The position numbers and the translations under genes were made by a program. Below, piece by piece: positions 1-13,177 of a stretch of DNA of 13,981 nt. The DNA is from a virus (lineage: Duplodnaviria; Heunggongvirae; Uroviricota; Caudoviricetes). Location: IMG/VR virus record IMGVR_UViG_2531839454_000017, positions 1 through 13,981 of that record; one strand, given 5' to 3'. The notes beneath the pieces were generated by a model. It saw only the letters and a list, made by a program, of their open reading frames with translations, was not told the DNA's origin and made no database searches. Positions within the stretch are counted from its first letter, which is position 1. Every line of letters begins with the position of its first letter.

Positions 1-212
<212 letters not shown>

Positions 213-372
213 CTCGGTGGCCAGTTTTTGTTGACCACTTCACTTCCTACCATCCAGCATTCTTTCCGGGCCCGGAGAATTGTGCCTGGTTTGAGCCCGG
301 TAATTGCGATAAGAACGCTTTCACAAACCCATTCATTGGGAGCCAGTTGAATCACATTGCCCATGCATTACC

Positions 373-2398: not shown

Positions 2399-2980
2399 TT
2401 AATGTGTCACTGGCGCTTCTGGCATACCATGAGTATTCAGGTCGTTAATCATTTCATCCAGAAGGAGTTCAAGCCCTTCGCGCCCCATAGCAGAAACAAT
2501 GAAACCATTATCAGGATCTGCGATGAGCATATTTTGATAGAGAAACAGAACTCGCCCCATGCCTTCAGCTTCGCCATATTTTTCAATAAATCCCCATTCG
2601 ACATGGTTTTGCAGGGCAATGCGAAGTGGTCCTGGGTATATACTCATGCAACCATGCTTCCCCTTATAAATAACAGCGCGATCTGTAGTTCCGTTATCGT
2701 TAGGGATATCAATGGTGCCGTTCTTATACTCCTCTTCATTAATAAATACCGTTACATACAGCCAGCGCCACTGTGCAACCTTCATATCGATAGAACAGTT
2801 TTCTAAAATCCCGGACTCATCGGCTTCTGCCAGGCACTGGAGAATGCTTAAACCGCGTGAATTTGGATAATCGTATTCACCATCATTAAGCCGCTGTACG
2901 GCCTCAATATAATCAATGGTTGTATTACCAATTTTTATGCCATGTGGCGTTACTTCTGGTCGGAACTCTGAATGATTCAT
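2399..2980 (-). CDS. Hypothetical protein, 193 aa, no recognisable domain (start chosen inside ORF 2399..3055)
   Basis: ATG at 2980 preceded by AAGGAG with 8-nt spacing; this start overlaps the stop of the upstream 62-aa gene (ATGA at 2977-2980). No nucleotide-binding or catalytic motif recognised by eye. Confidence 0.7.
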   Translation of the reverse strand: MNHSEFRPEVTPHGIKIGNTTIDYIEAVQRLNDGEYDYPNSRGLSILQCLAEADESGILENCSIDMKVAQWRWLYVTVFINEEEYKNGTIDIPNDNGTTDRAVIYKGKHGCMSIYPGPLRIALQNHVEWGFIEKYGEAEGMGRVLFLYQNMLIADPDNGFIVSAMGREGLELLLDEMINDLNTHGMPEAPVTH

Positions 2981-3165
2981 AATGTTTGCTCCTTTGCTGG
3001 TGGAATAATCGTGTAGCCAGCTCTTTTTGCCATCCACAGAAATGTATCCATGCAACCAACGAATTCATTATCCAACAGATGTTTTGAGTAAATTACTTCA
3101 CCATTTTCAATGGTTAGCAACACTCTTACTTTTTTATGTGTTATGTTTTGGTGTTTTTCTTCCAT
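2977..3165 (-). CDS. Hypothetical small protein, 62 aa (MEEKHQNITHKKVRVLLTIENGEVIY...), translationally coupled to the 193-aa gene
   Basis: Preferred start ATG at 3165 is preceded by GGGAG with about 8-nt spacing; the ORF-track start at 3180 lacks a Shine-Dalgarno. Stop overlaps the downstream start. Confidence 0.55.
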   Translation of the reverse strand: MEEKHQNITHKKVRVLLTIENGEVIYSKHLLDNEFVGCMDTFLWMAKRAGYTIIPPAKEQTL

Positions 3166-3175
3166 TGATTTATCT

Positions 3176-3194
3176 CCCATATGCTTTGCGCAAA
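3176..3194. repeat. Copy 1 of a repeated 19-bp motif with palindromic core TTTGCGCAAA
   Basis: CCCATATGCTTTGCGCAAA; matches 13922-13940 at 18 of 19 positions; overlaps the start region of the 62-aa gene. Confidence 0.45.
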
Positions 3195-3361
3195 TACAGG
3201 CTGGCTATATGAAGATAAGAATCTCCATGTTGTGCAATGAGGCAGGCAGTTTTATACGATGCCTTATGTTTCAGGAAAGTCATAACATAATCTCCTGCGA
3301 ATAAAGGTTGCAACGATCCCCGGCGATAAAACCGTAATAAACATTCAGGGAATATTTATTG

Positions 3362-3727
3362 TTATTGCGCTAATTCTTTTTCGGCAGCAGATTTTGCATA
3401 TTCACATGCAAAATTCAGAATTTCGCTGCCAAGTGTTTTTGTTTCGTGATTACTGGACATATGTAATACCTGTGTTGCATGCAATAAATGATAAACATTT
3501 ACCGCAAATGAGTCCGGCTCCAGACAAATGCCTTCATAATCATCTTGTTGTGAGGTTGTTTCTGTCATTGCTCCTGAAGTGCATGCGAGCCTGTTTTTGA
3601 CAATTCTCTTTCCTCTAATCACTATATCGGCAACATCTATTGCCTTTACAACCTCCGGGAGAAGTTCCGGGTTTGTATAATCAAAGTCATCAACATGGAG
3701 AACAGTTATGTTTTCGAACTTTTTCAT
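3362..3727 (-). CDS. Hypothetical protein, 121 aa
   Basis: Intact ORF with GAGGAA upstream of the ATG at 3727; same orientation as the cargo block. No family recognised. Confidence 0.6.
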   Translation of the reverse strand: MKKFENITVLHVDDFDYTNPELLPEVVKAIDVADIVIRGKRIVKNRLACTSGAMTETTSQQDDYEGICLEPDSFAVNVYHLLHATQVLHMSSNHETKTLGSEILNFACEYAKSAAEKELAQ

Positions 3728-3855
3728 GGCTTCCTCAGCTGACTTATATGTTCTGCTATATAGCGAGTCTCAGAAGGGTTTTCATATTGAGACTGTTTCC
3801 GCAATGATTGATAAAAATGTTCGCATGTACCTTGAGGGGCGAAGCGGCGATTATG

Positions 3856-4404
3856 TCACCATTGGTATTGGTTCTTCCGTAGAAGAGCTTCGCGAGATAA
3901 GGAGCAAACTTGTTGAGATGCGTCATGGTGTTGCTGCTCCTCACTTTTTGGTTGCTCCGGAGGAGTAACCTCGCCAGTTAACAGCCACATCGGATCGCAG
4001 CCAAGAATATTTGCCAGTGGGATAAGCATACTGATGGTTGGTTCATACTCTCCGCTCTCCCACTGAATGATGATTTCTTCATCGAGATCGAGCAGCCTGG
4101 CGAGTTCGGCGGTTGTTAAGCCGCAGGCTTCGCGTTGGGGGCGAAGGTTAACCAGCCAGCTTTTAGGGAAGGATTGTTTTTGTTGTGCAGGAGAAGCCGC
4201 AGATAGAGCATATTCATGGATAAATTCCATTACCTCAATGCCCAGTTCCTTTGAGCGAGCACAATCCAGAAGATGGAATGTGCGTACAGCACTTAGCAAA
4301 TTTGCAATATTTAATGCAAAGGAATCAAGTTCTAAGCCTTCAAGCGTAACACAGCCGCAGTTGATAAAATTAGTTGTTTCTGGAGTTGCTTTTAGTGTCT
4401 TCAT
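3856..4404 (-). CDS. Atypical HTH (XRE/Cro-C1-type) protein, 182 aa: unknown ~90-aa N-terminal domain followed by the HTH
   Basis: Residues about 95-150 (GLTTAELARLLDLDEEIIIQWESGEYEPTISMLIPLANILGCDPMWLLTG) form a classic XRE helix-turn-helix; the N-terminal ~90 aa and the Gln/Glu-rich tail are unassigned. Own sigma70-like promoter upstream. Confidence 0.75.
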   Translation of the reverse strand: MKTLKATPETTNFINCGCVTLEGLELDSFALNIANLLSAVRTFHLLDCARSKELGIEVMEFIHEYALSAASPAQQKQSFPKSWLVNLRPQREACGLTTAELARLLDLDEEIIIQWESGEYEPTISMLIPLANILGCDPMWLLTGEVTPPEQPKSEEQQHHDASQQVCSLSREALLRKNQYQW

Positions 4405-4457
4405 ATACCCACCAACAATTTTAAATTGAATTTAATCAAGTTATAATTGATGTTGCG

Positions 4458-4486
4458 ATATTATGCTTTGAGAAATAGGCTGTCAA
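4458..4486 (-). promoter_or_regulatory. Sigma70-like promoter for the HTH gene (minus strand): -35 TTGACA, 17-bp spacer, -10 TAATAT
   Basis: Reverse complement of 4481-4486 is TTGACA and of 4458-4463 is TAATAT, with a 17-nt spacer; sits between the cI terminator and the start at 4404. Confidence 0.5.
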
Positions 4487-4512
4487 GAAAAAATTGATAT
4501 CGTGTGTTTTAG

Positions 4513-4537
4513 GCAGAAAAAAACGGGCAAAGCCCGT
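4513..4537 (-). terminator. Rho-independent terminator downstream of the cI-like gene
   Basis: Minus-strand sense reads ACGGGC-UUU-GCCCGU followed by UUUUUUU; begins 13 nt after the repressor stop codon. Confidence 0.7.
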
Positions 4538-4549
4538 TAAAATCAAAGA

Positions 4550-5239
4550 CTAACCAAATCTGTTTATATTGAATGGTACTGATGAGATCACTTTAGACTG
4601 GATATAAAGCAGAGCTAACCCCTCTTTTTCGATGCTCCATGGTTGATAATTGGGGTTATCAGATAACACCATGATTTTGCTTCCAATTTTTTGAAGTCTT
4701 TTCACGTAGCATTCTCCATCAAAACAAAATGCATAAATGCCATCGCCATCAAAATAAGTTACTGTCTTATCAAGAAAAAGAAGGTCGCCAGGTGAGATTG
4801 TGGGAGCCATACTGTCTCCTCTGGCGTTACCTATTTCTATATTTTTGAATGCCCGATTTCCAACAAGGCGTCGGGCATATTCAGGATCAAGTTCTATTGA
4901 GCGCACTACATCTATCAAGTCACCACGGACATGAGTTCCATCACCGCAACTAAACTCAACATCAAGGACATTAAACACGACGCTATCTGTTCTTGTCTGG
5001 TGTTTCTCTTGCGAGGAAAAGGTTGGTGAGGAGTCTTCACCTAAGAACCAGGATTGTGGATAACCGCTAATCTCGGATAAATGCGCGAGCTTATCACTCC
5101 GTGGAAATGTTTTTCCTGTTGTCCAGTACTGCACTGATTGCGCACTCACACCTAACTTGCGGGCCAGTTGAGCCTGAGTCCATCCTTTTGCTTTCAGCAT
5201 CGCGGCTATTCGATTTTCCGTGTTTTTGACGTTCTTCAT
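4550..5239 (-). CDS. Prophage CI-like repressor: N-terminal XRE HTH plus C-terminal S24 (LexA-like) autopeptidase, about 229 aa
   Basis: HTH (WTQAQLARKLGVSAQSVQYW) and S24 motifs (GDSMAPTISPGDLLFLD with the catalytic Ser; YVKRL with the Lys). The track start is TTG at 5245; the ATG at 5239 is preferred. Divergent from a Cro-like gene. Confidence 0.9.
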   Translation of the reverse strand: MKNVKNTENRIAAMLKAKGWTQAQLARKLGVSAQSVQYWTTGKTFPRSDKLAHLSEISGYPQSWFLGEDSSPTFSSQEKHQTRTDSVVFNVLDVEFSCGDGTHVRGDLIDVVRSIELDPEYARRLVGNRAFKNIEIGNARGDSMAPTISPGDLLFLDKTVTYFDGDGIYAFCFDGECYVKRLQKIGSKIMVLSDNPNYQPWSIEKEGLALLYIQSKVISSVPFNINRFG

Positions 5240-5372
5240 GACCAAATCCTGTGGGTTTCTTTACAAGGATAAATCTTTACTTGATTTTAGTGTATTCGAT
5301 CCTTTTGCAACTTGCATGTTAATTTAAACTTGATGTATTCTTGATTTATAAAGTTAATGTTGGTGCTTTGTT
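5240..5372. promoter_or_regulatory. Divergent cI/cro promoter-operator region
   Basis: AT-rich 133-bp spacer between divergent repressor genes; three direct copies of a CTTGAT(T/G)T motif (about 5280, 5329, 5341); palindrome TGCAAcTTGCA at 5306-5316; a possible rightward promoter (TTAAAC, 17 bp, TATAAA at 5324-5352). Confidence 0.55.
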
Positions 5373-5645
5373 ATGAAAGGAAATGATTACGACAAACTTC
5401 GTGCATTAATTGCGCAAAATGCCATAGCGCGAAATCTTGGTGTGACGCCGCAAGCGGTGAATCAGTGGTTTTCAAAAAACACAATTCCTGCTCGTTTCGT
5501 TTTACGCGTATGTGAAGTAGTTGCATGGAAGGTCACGCCACATGGCTTAAGGCCAGATCTTTATCCTCACCCTGAAGATGGAATTCCTGATTCGTTACGC
5601 AAAATTTCAAATCCAAGCTTAGCGCATACAGAGGACGAGAAGTGA
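5373..5645 (+). CDS. Cro-like HTH regulator (YdaS/DicC-like), 90 aa
   Basis: HTH signature IARNLGVTPQAVNQWFSKNTIP; divergent arrangement with the CI-like repressor, as in lambdoid immunity regions. Confidence 0.75.
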   Translation: MKGNDYDKLRALIAQNAIARNLGVTPQAVNQWFSKNTIPARFVLRVCEVVAWKVTPHGLRPDLYPHPEDGIPDSLRKISNPSLAHTEDEK

Positions 5646-6122: not shown

Positions 6123-6836
6123 ATGGCAGTGAACACCGCAATTTTTAACGACAAAGCATCCATGACCAGCGTTGAGATCGCAGAGCTGGTGGGTAGTCAG
6201 CACTCAGATGTTAAACGTAGTATCGAACGCCTGGTTGCTAAAAACATCATCCGGAAACCGCCAATGGCTGTTTCCGAGAAAATCAATAACTTAGGTTTTA
6301 AAGTTCAATATGAGCATTACCTGTTTGAAGGAGAACAAGGTAAGCGCGACAGCATCATTGTCGTCGCACAGCTCTGCCCTGAATTCACTGCTCGCCTGGT
6401 AGATCGCTGGCGTGAACTGGAAGAACAGATCCGTAAGCCAATGAGCGAAATTGAAATGGTTGCTGCGATGGCTCTTGAAGCCGTTCGTCAGCAGAAACGG
6501 ATCACTCAGGTGGAAGAAAAAGTCAGCCATGTTGCCGAAACAGTTGAGCAAATCAAAAGGGGTACCATTCGTGAGGGCTATGCCGGATATCGCCAACTGA
6601 AAGCGAAAACCGGTTTGTCAGATGATAAATGCCGCAATCTGGTGAACGCCTATCAAATTCCTACAGATACCCACGAGTTTATGACGCCGGACGGATTGTT
6701 ATCACGTCGCGCAATTGTTGCTGTGGAACCGTTTATGGCCGCTTTTTATCAGGTTATGGAGGAAGCAGAACCGCGAGGGACTCGCTGGTATCACCCGAAA
6801 ATGGGGTTATTTCAGGTTATTGGTTGGCAGCGGTGA
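6123..6836 (+). CDS. Rha/antirepressor-like phage regulatory protein (N-terminal Rha-like motif plus unassigned C-terminal domain)
   Basis: Motif MTSVEIAELVGSQHSDVKRSIERL resembles the Rha N-terminal domain. Start is ambiguous: track ATG 6087 (no SD), ATG 6123, or GTG 6129 (AAGGAG at 6117-6122, best spacing). Stop TGA at 6834-6836. Confidence 0.6.
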   Translation: MAVNTAIFNDKASMTSVEIAELVGSQHSDVKRSIERLVAKNIIRKPPMAVSEKINNLGFKVQYEHYLFEGEQGKRDSIIVVAQLCPEFTARLVDRWRELEEQIRKPMSEIEMVAAMALEAVRQQKRITQVEEKVSHVAETVEQIKRGTIREGYAGYRQLKAKTGLSDDKCRNLVNAYQIPTDTHEFMTPDGLLSRRAIVAVEPFMAAFYQVMEEAEPRGTRWYHPKMGLFQVIGWQR

Positions 6837-6860
6837 AAAAAAGCCGGGTAGTGACCCGGC
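6836..6860 (-). terminator. Orphan minus-strand intrinsic terminator
   Basis: GCCGGGT-AGTG-ACCCGGC hairpin (6843-6860) followed, in minus sense, by seven U (plus-strand A-run 6836-6842); no U-tract on the plus side. Confidence 0.5.
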
Positions 6861-7062
6861 TCGCTCAACGTTAGTAAAGGCAACCTCACAAAGAAGTAAG
6901 CCAGTAACATCCAAGAACATTTGCGTTAGTAAAAATACCAGTAAGCATATGAATGTTTCAAGCCTAAATATTGATTCTGCAATTTCGGGACGTTACACTG
7001 TCTCCGCACCTTATAAAGCGGGTGCCGGGATTGGAACCCCGGAATTGCTCGAGGCGATATAC

Positions 7063-7082
7063 GACGCGCTAGCGTCTTTTTT
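7063..7082 (+). terminator. Plus-strand terminator-like hairpin between the two Rha genes (tR-like)
   Basis: GACGC-GCTA-GCGTC stem-loop followed by TTTTTT (7077-7082). Confidence 0.4.
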
Positions 7083-7248
7083 ATCGTCCATGCTCGCGCA
7101 CGCCAGAATTATGGTGGGCTGGGCAGGGGAGCCGAAAGGCTCGCCGGTTTCCTTGAGCGCCGGTAGTTCCAACCCTGTTCAGTCCGCCACCAGCGAGCTT
7201 GGAACCTCCGGTGGTGGAAGTTTTTCACTGCTCAAGGAGGCTGCCATC

Positions 7249-7611
7249 ATGGCTACAGTCCCAACTTCCCCATACCTGAAAATCGAAGTCGTCAACGGCA
7301 AGGCCGTTATTTTCTCCCTGCATGTTGCCTGCCACTTTAAGCGCATGCACCAGAACATCGTCGACAAAATCGAGTATCTGAACTGCTCACGCGAGTTTTT
7401 TACCCGCAATTTCATACCGGGTACTTATCACATCTATGGTGACTCCCTGCGTGGTTATTACATCACCCTTGATGGCCTGATGATGCTTCAGCTTGGGTTA
7501 AGTCTGCGCACAATGCGGTACTACGAGAGCTGTATTGAAGCATTCCATGAGGCAGAAACTAACCTGAATCACACCGCTTTCCGCCGTAATCAATGGGAGG
7601 TGCGTCCATGA
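7249..7611 (+). CDS. Rha-family phage regulatory protein, 120 aa
   Basis: HFKRMHQNIVDKIEYL ... NFIPGTY ... YYITLDGLMMLQLG ... CIEAFHEAE matches the Rha N-terminal domain pattern. ATG at 7249 preceded by AAGGAGG with 8-nt spacing. The same frame stays open upstream to 6715 but without a credible start. Confidence 0.7.
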   Translation: MATVPTSPYLKIEVVNGKAVIFSLHVACHFKRMHQNIVDKIEYLNCSREFFTRNFIPGTYHIYGDSLRGYYITLDGLMMLQLGLSLRTMRYYESCIEAFHEAETNLNHTAFRRNQWEVRP

Positions 7612-7802: not shown

Positions 7803-8023
7803 TTCGTCGCGTTGTGAATTCTCTGTATCACCGATACAACCGTTGCCCCCGTGTGGGGCAGTGGTTTGCCACCAGCAACGGTCACGTTCTGCGGGTTTGC
7901 CTGGTCAGTACCGAAAGCCAGAAAGTTGTGTGTGAATTACTGGGGCGTAACTACACCATTAGCTATCCGTTGATGGCGTTTCAGTCCGGAAAAATGTTTA
8001 AACGCCTGGGAGGTGCCGTGTGA
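7799..8023 (+). CDS. Hypothetical small phage protein, 74 aa (Cys-containing)
   Basis: ATGA overlap with the upstream stop; GGAGGGG Shine-Dalgarno; stop overlaps the GTG start of the next gene. Confidence 0.6.
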   Translation: MIRRVVNSLYHRYNRCPRVGQWFATSNGHVLRVCLVSTESQKVVCELLGRNYTISYPLMAFQSGKMFKRLGGAV

Positions 8024-8976
8024 GTAGCAAAATTCTCGGTAACGTCTGGGATGCATGTGCCGCGTATGGAGTCAAAGGTGCAAAGCTGATGATCATGGCG
8101 CGTCTGGCTGATTATTCGAATGATGACGGGGTGTGTTATCCCGGTGTTGAAACAATATGCCGACAGCTTGGGTTGGGAGAAAGCACAGTAAGAACAGCAA
8201 TTTCAGAGCTGGAGGCTGATGGCTGGCTGACGCGTCAGTCACGCCGCAAAGGTAATCGTAATACGTCCAATCTTTATCATCTGAATGCTGATCGGCTTGA
8301 ACAGCTTGCCAGAACGGAGCGGGATAAGGTCGCAGAACTAAAACAGCAGCGCAGACTTTCAGTACTACGTGACCCGTCAAAATCTGAACCTTCAAAATCT
8401 GAACCTTCAAAATCTGAACCTTCAAAATCTGAACCGTCAGAATCTGAATGTTCAGGTGTGTTTGACCCTTCAGATTCTGGCAAAAAAACGGTTTTGACCC
8501 TTCAGAATCTGGCCCCAGATCCACAAGGTTTAAAACATGATCCGCAAGTAAATTCAAAACATGATCCGCAAGATATTGGCGCATCCGCTGACGCGTCTGC
8601 ACCAGCGCGCTCTGCCCGACAGGAATATTCACCGGAATTTGAACAGGCCTGGCAGGAATATCCCAAACGTGCTGGTGGTAATTCCAAGTCGGCAGCCTTC
8701 AAAGCCTGGAAAGCCCGTCTCAGGGAGGGAATAAAACCGGAGACCATGCTTGATGGTGTGAGACGTTATGCCGCTTGGGTACGTGCTACAGGAAATACCG
8801 GCACACAGTTCGTGAAGCAGGCTGCGACGTTCTTTGGACCCGATCGTCACTTCGAAGACTTCTGGCAACAGCCAGCCGCTCCCGGAGGGGGGCGACAGCG
8901 ACAGGTCGATGTCCTGGCTGGCCTGGGAGCCATGTCTGACAAATTCGGTAAATCCAGTGACAAATTGACATTCTGA
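8020..8976 (+). CDS. Phage replication initiator (lambda O-like replisome organiser): N-terminal winged-helix region, central repeats, C-terminal domain
   Basis: GTG start with GGGAGG 6 nt upstream, coupled to the preceding gene; PSKSE repeated four times plus further repeats in the middle; position immediately upstream of the DnaC- and DnaB-like genes. Confidence 0.75.
   Translation: MSSKILGNVWDACAAYGVKGAKLMIMARLADYSNDDGVCYPGVETICRQLGLGESTVRTAISELEADGWLTRQSRRKGNRNTSNLYHLNADRLEQLARTERDKVAELKQQRRLSVLRDPSKSEPSKSEPSKSEPSKSEPSESECSGVFDPSDSGKKTVLTLQNLAPDPQGLKHDPQVNSKHDPQDIGASADASAPARSARQEYSPEFEQAWQEYPKRAGGNSKSAAFKAWKARLREGIKPETMLDGVRRYAAWVRATGNTGTQFVKQAATFFGPDRHFEDFWQQPAAPGGGRQRQVDVLAGLGAMSDKFGKSSDKLTF
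8374..8512. repeat. Iteron-like array inside the O-like gene; candidate phage replication origin
   Basis: Five tandem 15-bp units (TCAAAATCTGAACCT and variants) at 8377-8451, then two copies of TTTGACCCTTCAGA(T/A)TCTGG flanking an A-run (8461-8512), and a further 17-bp direct repeat (AAAACATGATCCGCAAG, twice) near 8531-8580. Confidence 0.55.
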
Positions 8977-11253: not shown

Positions 11254-11507
11254 ACAACCAGACAACACCTTTTACCCCTGAACAATTACGTAAACAGGCA
11301 CAGGAAATGTTGCGACAGGCGGAACAACTGGAAAAAACAGGTGTAACAAAAGATGCCATTCGTCGGGATATGGTGCCAGCGCTCAGGGAACTGATGCAGG
11401 CGAAACACCGCGCACAAAAAGCGGTGGATGAGCTGGTGGATTGTGTGGCAGAGCTGGAAACCAGAGTTGGAAAGTTTGAAAAACTGGTGCAGGAGGTGCT
11501 GCGCTGA
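11250..11507 (+). CDS. Hypothetical small protein, 85 aa, probably coiled-coil
   Basis: TTG start at 11250 overlapping the helicase stop, with GGAG about 8 nt upstream; an internal ATG at 11307 is an alternative start. Stop overlaps the Q start. Confidence 0.5.
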
Positions 11508-11890
11508 TGCGTGATATTCAGATGGTTCTTGAGCGTTGGGGGGCATGGGTGGCAAATAATCATGAGGATGTCACCTGGTCATCGATTGCAGCCGGATTCA
11601 AGGGACTTATTCCTTCAAAGGTTAAATCGCGACCGCAATGTAGTGATGATGACGCAATGGTTATTTGTGGGTGTATGGCTCGTTTGAAAAAGAACAACAG
11701 TGATTTGCATGATTTGCTGGTAGATTATTATGTGGCTGGTATGACGTTTATGGCACTGGCCCGTAAGCATCATTGTTCTGATGGATATATAGGAAAAAAA
11801 CTTCAGAAGGCTGAAGGAATAGTCGACGGAATGTTGATGGCACTGGATGTTCGTCTCGAGATGGATCTTGAAGTTGTTAGATGTTATTGA
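11507..11890 (+). CDS. Late-gene antiterminator Q, 127 aa (phage 21/QuuD-like type)
   Basis: Length, sequence ([24 protein letters not shown] ... [23 protein letters not shown]) and position before the late-region porin match the short Q family of DLP12/phage-21-type lambdoids; AGGAGG upstream. Confidence 0.8.
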
Positions 11891-12079: not shown

Positions 12080-13177
12080 TTAGAACTGGTAAACCATACC
12101 GACAGCAACAATATCGTCGGTGTTTATACCAAGACCTCTGGTGAAATCATTTTTGTCAAGCAGGTTGATTTTGTAATCAACGAAAGTAGACATATTTTTG
12201 TTGAAGTAATAGGTTGCGCCTACATCAACATATTTAACTAAGTCTTGATCGCCCCATACTCCGAGATCTTTACCTTTAGATTGCAGGTAAGCCACGGACG
12301 GACGCAGCCCAAAATCGAACTGATATTGTGCAACAGCCTCAACGTTCTGAGCTTTATTAGCGACGAAGCGATCAGCAAATACCGTCATATTCTGGGTTTC
12401 AGAATAGGTAGTGGCCAAGTAAATGTTGTTAGCGTCATATTTCAGACCAGCGGCCCAAACTTCTGCATTTTTACCGGAAGCAAATACTCCAGGAAGAACT
12501 TTCCCTAGATTAACTTGAGTGTCGGTACGGTCAGATTTCGCATAAGTTGCACCAATACCGAATCCTTCGTATTCATAGGTAGCAGAGAAACCGAAGCCAT
12601 CACCGTTACCTTCGGTATAGTTATCGAGATTGCTACGATCGTTTTTGCCTTGGTACTGAGCAGCAAAGTTCAGACCATCAACCAGACCGAAGAAGTCGTT
12701 ATTACGGTAAGTTGCAACACCAGTTGCACGCTGAGTCATGAATACGTCGGTTTGAGTCCAGGTATCCCCACCGAATTCTGGCAAAACGTCAGTCCACGCA
12801 CCGATGTCGTATGCTACACCGTAGTTACGGCCATAATCGATGGAGCCGTAGTCACCGAATTTCAGGCCAGCGAATGCAAGGCGAGTTTTATCCCCGGAAG
12901 AACCTTGAGATTCAGCACGGTTGCCTTTGAATTCATATTCCCACTGACCGAAACCAGTCAGTTGATCATTGATTTGGGTTTCGCCTTTGAAGCCCAGACG
13001 AGCATAAGTTTTGTCACCATCGTGTTTATCGTTAGAGGAGAAGTAGTGCTCGGCATTAACTTTTCCGTACAGATCCAGTTTGTTGCTGTCTTTGTTATAA
13101 ATCTCTGCTGCTTGAGCAGACATCGCCATTAATACTGACGCAGCTACAGCAGAGATTGCCACTGTTAATTTTTTCAT
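12080..13177 (-). CDS. nmpC: Prophage-encoded outer-membrane porin (OmpC/OmpF superfamily, NmpC/Lc type), 365 aa
   Basis: Signal peptide [23 protein letters not shown] followed by AEIYNKD; general-porin beta-barrel sequence ending in the C-terminal VYQF; minus-strand gene placed just after Q, as nmpC in DLP12 and lc in PA-2; AAGGA Shine-Dalgarno. Confidence 0.93.

Follow-up and report, generated by a model that had tools for sequence, protein, structure and literature searches.

In the early-left region of phages lambda and P22, the repressor gene cI and its terminator are followed by OL/PL and then by N (or 24); multiple operators of the cI–cro type overlap the leftward promoter, and the operon runs to xis and int. 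In the Sin system of Bacillus subtilis, SinI, a paralogue of the two-helix oligomerization module of SinR, forms a heterodimer that abolishes DNA binding (PMC3163267). Here we compare with these systems a locus at positions 3362–4486 of a 13 981-nt stretch of Caudoviricetes DNA (IMG/VR record IMGVR_UViG_2531839454_000017, positions 1–13 981; the whole stretch is called ‘the window’ below). The locus comprises a leftward promoter, a gene for a 182-aa protein with an XRE-type helix-turn-helix (HTH) domain (the regulator), a gene for a 121-aa protein (the partner) and, on the opposite strand, a gene for an 86-aa protein.

We consider that the locus is best explained jointly by a promoter analogous to PL/OL, an XRE regulator with a hairpin-paired 121-aa partner and a convergent 86-aa gene; we would give this reading a probability of roughly 0.55. 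It builds on gene structure, domain paralogy, domain fusions, operator co-variation and the coding status of the 86-aa frame, all of which were observed. As in SinR/SinI, one protein combines an XRE HTH of the phage-repressor kind with a two-helix module, and the adjoining small gene encodes a paralogue of that module, both copies being predicted two-helix hairpins. Unlike in SinR, where it is C-terminal, the helical module is N-terminal here; also, the partner often has an additional alpha/beta domain, there are many hairpin types, which are not always matched, and the heteromer is proposed from sequence and models. As in lambda and P22, the repressor gene with its terminator is immediately followed by a leftward promoter, which candidate operators of OR type overlap, and the operon runs to xis and int; however, its first gene encodes an XRE HTH protein rather than an N-type antiterminator, and apart from this the control region would be an ordinary lambdoid PL/OL. 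No nut-like element came to light, though no search was aimed at one. The dicA–dicB region of the Qin prophage is similar in having an enterobacterial prophage XRE HTH gene with an operon of small genes directly downstream, under repressor control; only the HTH is common, though, and the 182-aa protein, rather than being the immunity repressor, is encoded by the gene that opens the controlled operon. The DicA model (NCBIfam NF007257) scored 40.7 bits on the HTH region alone, below its membership cut-off of 101.

The regulator and its hairpin partner

The regulator gene (3856–4404, minus strand), the first of the leftward operon, belongs to the phiP27 L10 family (phrog_4836); the product of the partner gene (3362–3727, minus strand; phrog_5451) is identical to phiP27 L08. 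Both open reading frames (ORFs) are as given in a preliminary description of this DNA, which also saw an atypical architecture with the HTH in the middle and C-terminal half of the 182-aa protein. The architecture was borne out: Pfam HTH_3 (PF01381) matches residues 90–141 (40.4 bits against a cut-off of 23, E = 3e-10), which places the protein within the XRE (Cro/CI-type) HTH group, and the N-terminus has no Pfam family. In an AlphaFold2 (AF2) model built with a 50-sequence alignment the HTH (residues 87–143; 3976–4146, minus strand) was predicted confidently; the top Foldseek matches were P22 c2, 434 Cro and C.AhdI, with template modelling (TM) scores to the target of 0.8–0.9 over about 63 residues. 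A profile search of PDB sequences returned generic HTH relatives only.

The N-terminal part had been described as an unassigned domain of ∼90 aa. Unassigned it is, but it is not a single domain: in the AF2 model about 23 disordered residues precede a 47-residue two-helix hairpin (residues 24–70; 4195–4335, minus strand), with helices at 24–45 and 49–70 and a predicted confidence (pLDDT) of about 70, and a linker follows. We refer to this hairpin as type N1. Foldseek gave only generic, non-significant PDB hits for it; a known antitoxin or regulator fold, named beforehand as the finding that would tell against the proposal, did not come up for the predicted structures.

The regulator family has 159 matches, almost all from E. 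coli. Its N-terminal domain is hypervariable, its HTH nearly invariant, and a second tandem HTH is present in most members. The window's regulator has one HTH, and because this first HTH ends in ‘CDPMWLLTG’, typical of the second HTH, it looks as if the second was lost by recombination between the two repeats, leaving an apparent hybrid.

The partner family is conserved over its full length down to 45% identity. RefSeq (PGAP) annotates only the last 68 codons of the gene (WP_000141090.1); since conservation spans the whole length, we take the 121-aa reading to be right and the 68-aa call to be too short. The conserved part of the partner is a small alpha/beta domain, which we call ‘KFE’ (residues 1–48; 3584–3727, minus strand); BLASTP and AF2 delimit a two-helix hairpin at the C-terminus (residues 69–120; 3368–3523, minus strand). 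The AF2 model has the alpha/beta domain at residues 5–47, a disordered linker and confident hairpin helices at 71–89 and 94–120 (pLDDT about 90). Over 47 aa the partner hairpin (69–115) is 47% identical to the regulator hairpin (24–70; BLASTP E = 9e-11), and we regard it as a paralogue of the regulator's N-domain. Against PDB and BFVD, Foldseek found generic, non-significant hits for the hairpin and no match for the alpha/beta domain. No hit to the SinI domain (Pfam PF08671) appeared in Pfam scans of the window proteins and their relatives. Scans of Pfam, NCBIfam, PHROGs and PADLOC returned only unnamed PHROGs for the 86-aa protein, the hairpin and the KFE domain; on these searches the three appear to belong to no described family. 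No functional study emerged from literature searches on phiP27 L08 and L10, their accession numbers and Shiga toxin (Stx) phage regulatory cassettes.

A profile of the 121-aa family, run against 1.84 billion representative proteins, found only 38 relatives; in several of these we saw the same modules in other combinations. In P0164, P0165 and P0170 the alpha/beta domain (motif ADIVI.G..VVKNR) is directly followed in the same chain by two XRE HTHs, whereas in P0160, P0166, P0171 and P0176 it has other helical C-termini. P0177 and P0182 are fusions of the hairpin with HTHs, and P0179 unites the hairpin and HTHs with what is left of the alpha/beta domain in a single chain. The genes of P0179 and P0170 head the leftward genes of their loci, downstream of the repressor gene, from which one other gene separates each of them. 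Because of these fusions (the ‘Rosetta stone’ argument), we assign the 182-aa and 121-aa proteins to one system and expect that they probably touch. The preliminary description had thought a pairing of the regulator with the next gene possible; in keeping with this, the two share a paralogous domain, and their genes abut or overlap in loci L031 and L040.

Is the hairpin of the partner matched to that of the regulator? We collected 168 related loci with seven repressor types. In nearly every locus a hairpin gene directly follows the regulator, either as the 121-aa form, as a bare hairpin of 63–80 aa, or as a pair of 74 and 63 aa resembling types N5 and N4. The two hairpins in the window match in type (both N1), those of phiP27-type loci do not, and across the survey downstream hairpin genes follow any regulator N-type. 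Co-variation of the partner hairpin with the regulator N-type was thus rejected, given free reassortment over the 168 loci. The hairpin of P0148, 57% identical to type N5, was also rejected as a case of co-variation: the regulator at its locus is of type N2.

Further small ORFs that stand alone beyond the regulator gene, on its downstream side, resemble other N-domain types. In L004 a 128-aa ORF (2265–2651) is 29% identical to type N4; others are present in L133–L138 and L155, the 74-aa and 63-aa pair (like N5 and N4) among them. Because these ORFs resemble types N4 and N5, we conclude that the regulator N-domain has been duplicated into separate genes more than once.

One could speculate that the hairpins make up a diversifying ‘address’ system: a regulator hairpin specific for each immunity type would prevent cross-pairing between co-resident prophages, while free and KFE-linked hairpins would be decoys poisoning the early regulator of competing heteroimmune phages. 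Such decoys would reassort independently, would mostly mimic the commonest type, N1, and would act in co-induction or superinfection. We regard this proposal, in all its parts, as rather doubtful.

A different role for the hairpin follows if the 182-aa protein is a CII counterpart, an early activator of repressor and integrase synthesis. The hairpin proteins would then be CIII-like decoys, having an N-terminal degron or docking domain in common with the regulator and shielding it from proteolysis. An early HTH regulator paired with a small helical early protein, a potential modulator, does recall lambda CII/CIII: the gene is early, and a paralogous hairpin suits a competitive decoy. The lack of any Phage_CII-family match among the proteins scanned also counts for this possibility, as does the label ‘CII-like’, given to the regulator family by PHROGs and one phage record only. 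However, that label seems to rest on the generic HTH, as Phage_CII (PF05269) matched neither the 182-aa protein (E ≤ 0.1) nor four of its relatives (E ≤ 1). Architecture and genome position differ as well, the gene being in the left operon and not the right, and no target promoter was identified. We consider a CII-like role unlikely, though worth keeping in mind.

Promoter, palindromes and immunity types

An intrinsic terminator of the cI transcript (4522–4538, minus strand; 7-bp stem with 5 G–C pairs, T run) starts 12 nt past the cI stop, and its stem is invariant in 38 related sequences. It is followed by the sigma-70 promoter TTGACA-17-TAATAT (4458–4486, minus strand), which matches the consensus at 10 of 12 positions. 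Both elements had been noticed in the preliminary description and both stand. In the region scanned promoter-like hits were no commoner than in shuffled sequence (5 found, 8 expected); nevertheless, across 38 distinct related sequences of the window's type both hexamers are invariant and the spacer variable, and a TTGACA-like −35 element is found at this place in five of the seven immunity types (the other two have weaker candidates, TTGCCA and TTGCTA). The promoter scan found no second strong leftward promoter between cI and position 2300.

Three operator-like palindromes flank the promoter. O1 (GTCAAGAAAAAATTGAT, 4482–4498) overlaps the −35 hexamer; O2 (ATCAAGTTATAATTGAT, 4435–4451), with perfect arms, covers about +1 to +17 of the transcript; the third and weaker, O3 (ACAATTTTAAATTGAA, 4416–4431), lies in the leader and is invariant among relatives. 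In the same 38 sequences all three are invariant while the intervening sequence varies. An exact TCAA-N7-TTGA occurs just twice in the 14-kb window (0.46 expected), at 4483–4497 on the −35 and at 4436–4450 at about +1.

The cI–cro intergenic operator region (5269–5364) has three 17-bp sites (5269–5285, 5318–5334 and 5348–5364) and contains three copies of the half-site CTTGAT, in common with the sites at the HTH-gene promoter. When the window was searched with ATCAAG-N5-CTTGAT, derived from the promoter sites, allowing up to three mismatches, nine further places were found, three of them inside the 127-bp cI–cro region. Furthermore, for each of the seven repressor types the promoter palindromes resemble in kind those of the type's own cI–cro region. 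Examples of palindromes common to the promoter and the cognate cI–cro region are the 12-mer CCAAAGTATCAA, the 13-mer CTATAGCGATTGA, TTAGCA-N3-TGCTAA, ATCG[GA]-N4-CCGAT, AATAGCAA and ACTATCAA. Exact k-mer sharing was highest on the diagonal (cognate pairs) in three of the four types tested.

Between the seven immunity types the promoter sites differ in type, yet the HTH of the 182-aa family hardly varies. An invariant HTH cannot account for seven site types; therefore, the binder would be the immunity repressor (and Cro), and we rejected the palindromes as autoregulatory sites of the 182-aa protein. Because its palindromes are of the cI–cro type and it lies to the left of cI and the terminator, heading the leftward genes, the promoter is most likely a repressor-controlled early-left promoter, an analogue of PL/OL, rather than the promoter of a moron. 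The locus had been called an independent unit: it does have its own promoter after a terminator, but the palindromes, varying with the seven immunity types, speak against independence from the phage switch.

The seven N-domain types of the regulator are linked perfectly to the seven repressor types over 165 loci, as one would expect if the variable hairpin bound its cognate CI (or Cro), making the regulator an immunity-specific anti-repressor or co-repressor expressed from PL that feeds back on the switch. Such linkage is, however, expected from adjacency: the coding regions are about 150 bp apart and there is no sequence shared between types in which recombination could occur. phiP27 and the window are 97.7% identical in HTH-coding DNA and have nothing in common upstream, and the junction of the immunity and leftward modules lies in this conserved HTH-coding DNA. 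As the conserved HTH would also be left unexplained, binding of the hairpin to CI or Cro seems to us very unlikely.

In L168, the locus of P0179, a 293-aa gene on the opposite strand (2962–3843, weak BRCT match) lies between the repressor and regulator genes; in the window this slot holds just the terminator and the promoter.

The opposite-strand gene and the inverted repeat

The stretch 3728–3855 had been taken as intergenic; it proved to lie within a plus-strand gene for the 86-aa protein (3708–3968; phrog_6104), convergent with the regulator gene and preceded by a Shine–Dalgarno sequence, GGAG, 7 nt before the ATG at 3708. The start of this gene overlaps the start of the 121-aa gene, its end runs over the final 113 nt of the 182-aa ORF, and its product matches an unnamed PHROG (E = 2e-48). 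In the diverged copies of L085 and L087 the frame is kept, with a ratio of non-synonymous to synonymous substitution rates (dN/dS) of 0.10–0.38, and within the overlap with the 182-aa ORF dN/dS in the 86-aa frame is 0.06–0.28. Full-length homologues (58–95% identity) with an invariant core are present in E. albertii, Salmonella and Citrobacter, and the same three genes with the same overlaps are found in Citrobacter and Salmonella loci (L172 and L173). On this evidence we consider the plus-strand ORF to be a real, conserved gene. When a promoter for it was sought, the conserved −35 and −10 look-alikes proved to coincide with conserved codons of the 121-aa gene. The gene is absent from the annotation of RefSeq NZ_CP025856; GenBank CP028741 annotates it as 82 aa.

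This gene also bears on the C-terminal tail of the regulator (residues 147–182; 3859–3966, minus strand), which is disordered in the AF2 model (pLDDT <50). In the tail frame dN/dS is 1.7–3.7, so there is no purifying selection on the last 36 residues, and in L018, L019 and L029 a premature stop interrupts the tail while the 86-aa ORF is still intact. In L031 and like loci, which lack the 86-aa insert, the regulator gene overlaps the 121-aa gene directly. Because the tail is disordered, unconstrained and stop-bearing in relatives, and because of the direct overlap in L031, we interpret it as read-through into the convergent gene.

In phiP27 (L002), L035 and some E. coli loci, 159 bp corresponding to window positions 3815–3973 are replaced by about 520 bp. 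Between the regulator and 121-aa genes, the replacement carries a helical ORF of 82 aa that is not annotated (4767–5015, minus strand, in L002), and in these loci the 86-aa ORF is reduced to 36–50 codons.

An inverted repeat suggested earlier as an operator, AGTCTCA/TGAGACT, does exist (arms at 3766–3772 and 3788–3794) but is found inside the 86-aa coding sequence. Inverted 7-bp repeats of this quality number 48 in the window (about 0.44 per 128 bp), so that this one is not above chance; in phiP27, L085 and L087 a synonymous change at a third codon position disrupts one of its arms. By these comparisons the suggested operator is a chance repeat within coding sequence. Another inverted repeat, at 3336–3360 past the 121-aa stop, was dropped as a conserved site or terminator, since its commonest variant loses several pairs with no compensation.

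The preliminary description had also thought of a sensor-regulator or the antitoxin-like component of a two-gene module. The locus would then be an autonomous moron expressed in the lysogen, with the 121-aa protein as toxin in the second case, autoregulated at its own operator. A strong promoter after a terminator and a position downstream of cI, that of rexAB in lambda, fit this scheme; the module, though, heads the entire leftward operon, its promoter palindromes track the immunity type and not the invariant HTH, and the operator proposed for it is the chance repeat just described. HTH antitoxin models (HipB-type, MqsA and spr1629) do hit the 182-aa protein, but weakly, at 19–23 bits against NCBIfam cut-offs of 62–335, and in PADLOC-DB it has HTH-level matches only (RmrA, HTH_VI and CapH); these antitoxin and defence hits span the HTH alone, far under the family cut-offs. 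The 121-aa protein has no match to a toxin or defence model (none in Pfam or PADLOC; a chance-level 15 bits against a cut-off of 336 in NCBIfam), and PADLOC-DB gave none for the 86-, 67- and 218-aa products either. Moreover, the partner is often a bare hairpin of 63–80 aa, and elsewhere its KFE domain is fused to the HTH in one chain. As far as these models tell, no toxin, antitoxin or defence family fits the module; the antitoxin-like reading was not upheld, and we see hardly any room for an autonomous moron.

Proposed mechanism and prophage setting

In the reading that we favour, the promoter at 4486–4458 would be shut in the lysogen by CI/Cro acting at the three flanking palindromes and would be active early after infection or induction, when the whole leftward arm toward int would be transcribed. 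The first product, the 182-aa XRE-family DNA-binding regulator, would most likely oligomerize via its N-terminal hairpin, and the 121-aa protein would most likely dock on it by hairpin–hairpin packing in a four-helix bundle; the two proteins would thus probably form a hetero-oligomer like that of SinR and SinI. Docking could either deliver the alpha/beta domain to the regulator, as a non-covalent equivalent of the fusions, or antagonize or titrate the regulator as SinI does SinR. The 86-aa gene, read the other way across the boundary between the regulator and partner genes, may further disturb leftward transcription by antisense or convergent interference. CI repression, hairpin-mediated hetero-oligomerization and any regulatory output are the steps that we infer here.

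Several observations weigh against this reading. The partner hairpin type does not co-vary with the regulator N-type, an N1-like partner following all seven N-types, and the regulator of a Salmonella relative (L173) has no evident hairpin; because of this, cognate hairpin pairing cannot be universal. The model of the regulator hairpin is of moderate confidence only (pLDDT about 70). Of the four types tested by shuffling, just two had a significant number of exact k-mers in common between the promoter and the cognate cI–cro region, and for the remaining types the match is a half-site resemblance judged by eye. Finally, it is the position of the operators, and that only, which points to CI as repressor of the promoter.

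The segment 3300–4560 of the window is 99.8% identical to a prophage adjoining yecN/cmoA/yecE (DUF72) in E. coli strain 504838. It occurs in 305 of 5426 complete genomes of E. coli, matches phage PhiR49_2 at 96.6% identity and is partially identical to Stx2e phage phiP27. Because of these identities we take the window to be a phiP27-like lambdoid prophage of E. coli, with the immunity region and both early arms. The cI-type repressor gene (4550–5245, minus strand; 231 aa, XRE HTH and S24 peptidase, immunity type R1) has Pfam matches to Peptidase_S24 (E = 4e-17) and HTH_3 (E = 5e-8) and is annotated as cI in PhiR49_2. The ORF list and family scans place a cro-like gene at 5373–5645 (plus strand), leftward genes toward xis and int to the left of cI, and replication genes and a Q antiterminator in the right arm; the Q-type gene (11507–11890) was found by family scan.

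Some other features of the window were seen in passing. A 67-aa product encoded after the 121-aa gene (2977–3180, minus strand; phrog_340) has weak likeness to the C-terminal part of anti-repressor families phrog_4792 and phrog_2379 (E = 0.004–0.04). At the left end, ORFs 27–212 (plus strand) and 209–364 (minus strand) are an apparent C-terminus of an IS3-family transposase beside a short excisionase-like ORF, which suggests, judged on translation alone, that an insertion sequence has split the leftward arm of this copy. Within the long right-arm ORF 6715–7611, Rfam models match the plus strand at 7006–7082 (isrK Hfq-binding small RNA, sRNA; 63 bits) and directly after it at 7107–7194 (C4 antisense RNA, 84 bits); together (7006–7194) they look like an sRNA-controlled anti-repressor module of the P1-immI or Gifsy kind. 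A replication-initiator-like ORF (8020–8976, plus strand) has a tandem peptide repeat, SEPSK, in four to five copies at about 8369–8440; at the DNA level these repeats might represent iterons or repeats of an origin. A gene for an OmpC/NmpC-like porin (365 aa; 12080–13177, minus strand) lies close downstream of the Q antiterminator gene, in a late-operon moron position.

The probable PL/OL control and the chance repeat are the ordinary part of this locus; the regulatory module that heads the early operon is its uncharacterized and narrowly distributed part. In many prophages of E. coli, Shigella, Salmonella and Citrobacter the early-left operon is opened by this regulator and not by an N antiterminator, and these prophages include Stx1a, Stx2a, Stx2d and Stx2e phages of the phiP27/yecE group. 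If the regulator shapes the lysis–lysogeny decision or induction, it would have a bearing on Shiga-toxin release. Annotation of the locus is a practical problem, with the 121-aa gene shortened to 68 aa and the 86-aa gene omitted in RefSeq. The address-system proposal, if true, would mean a new kind of interference between phages, by dominant-negative domain mimicry. The shuffling of hairpin, KFE and HTH domains, together with a conserved gene embedded in antisense, makes the locus a compact case of the evolution of a regulator and its antagonist by domain duplication.

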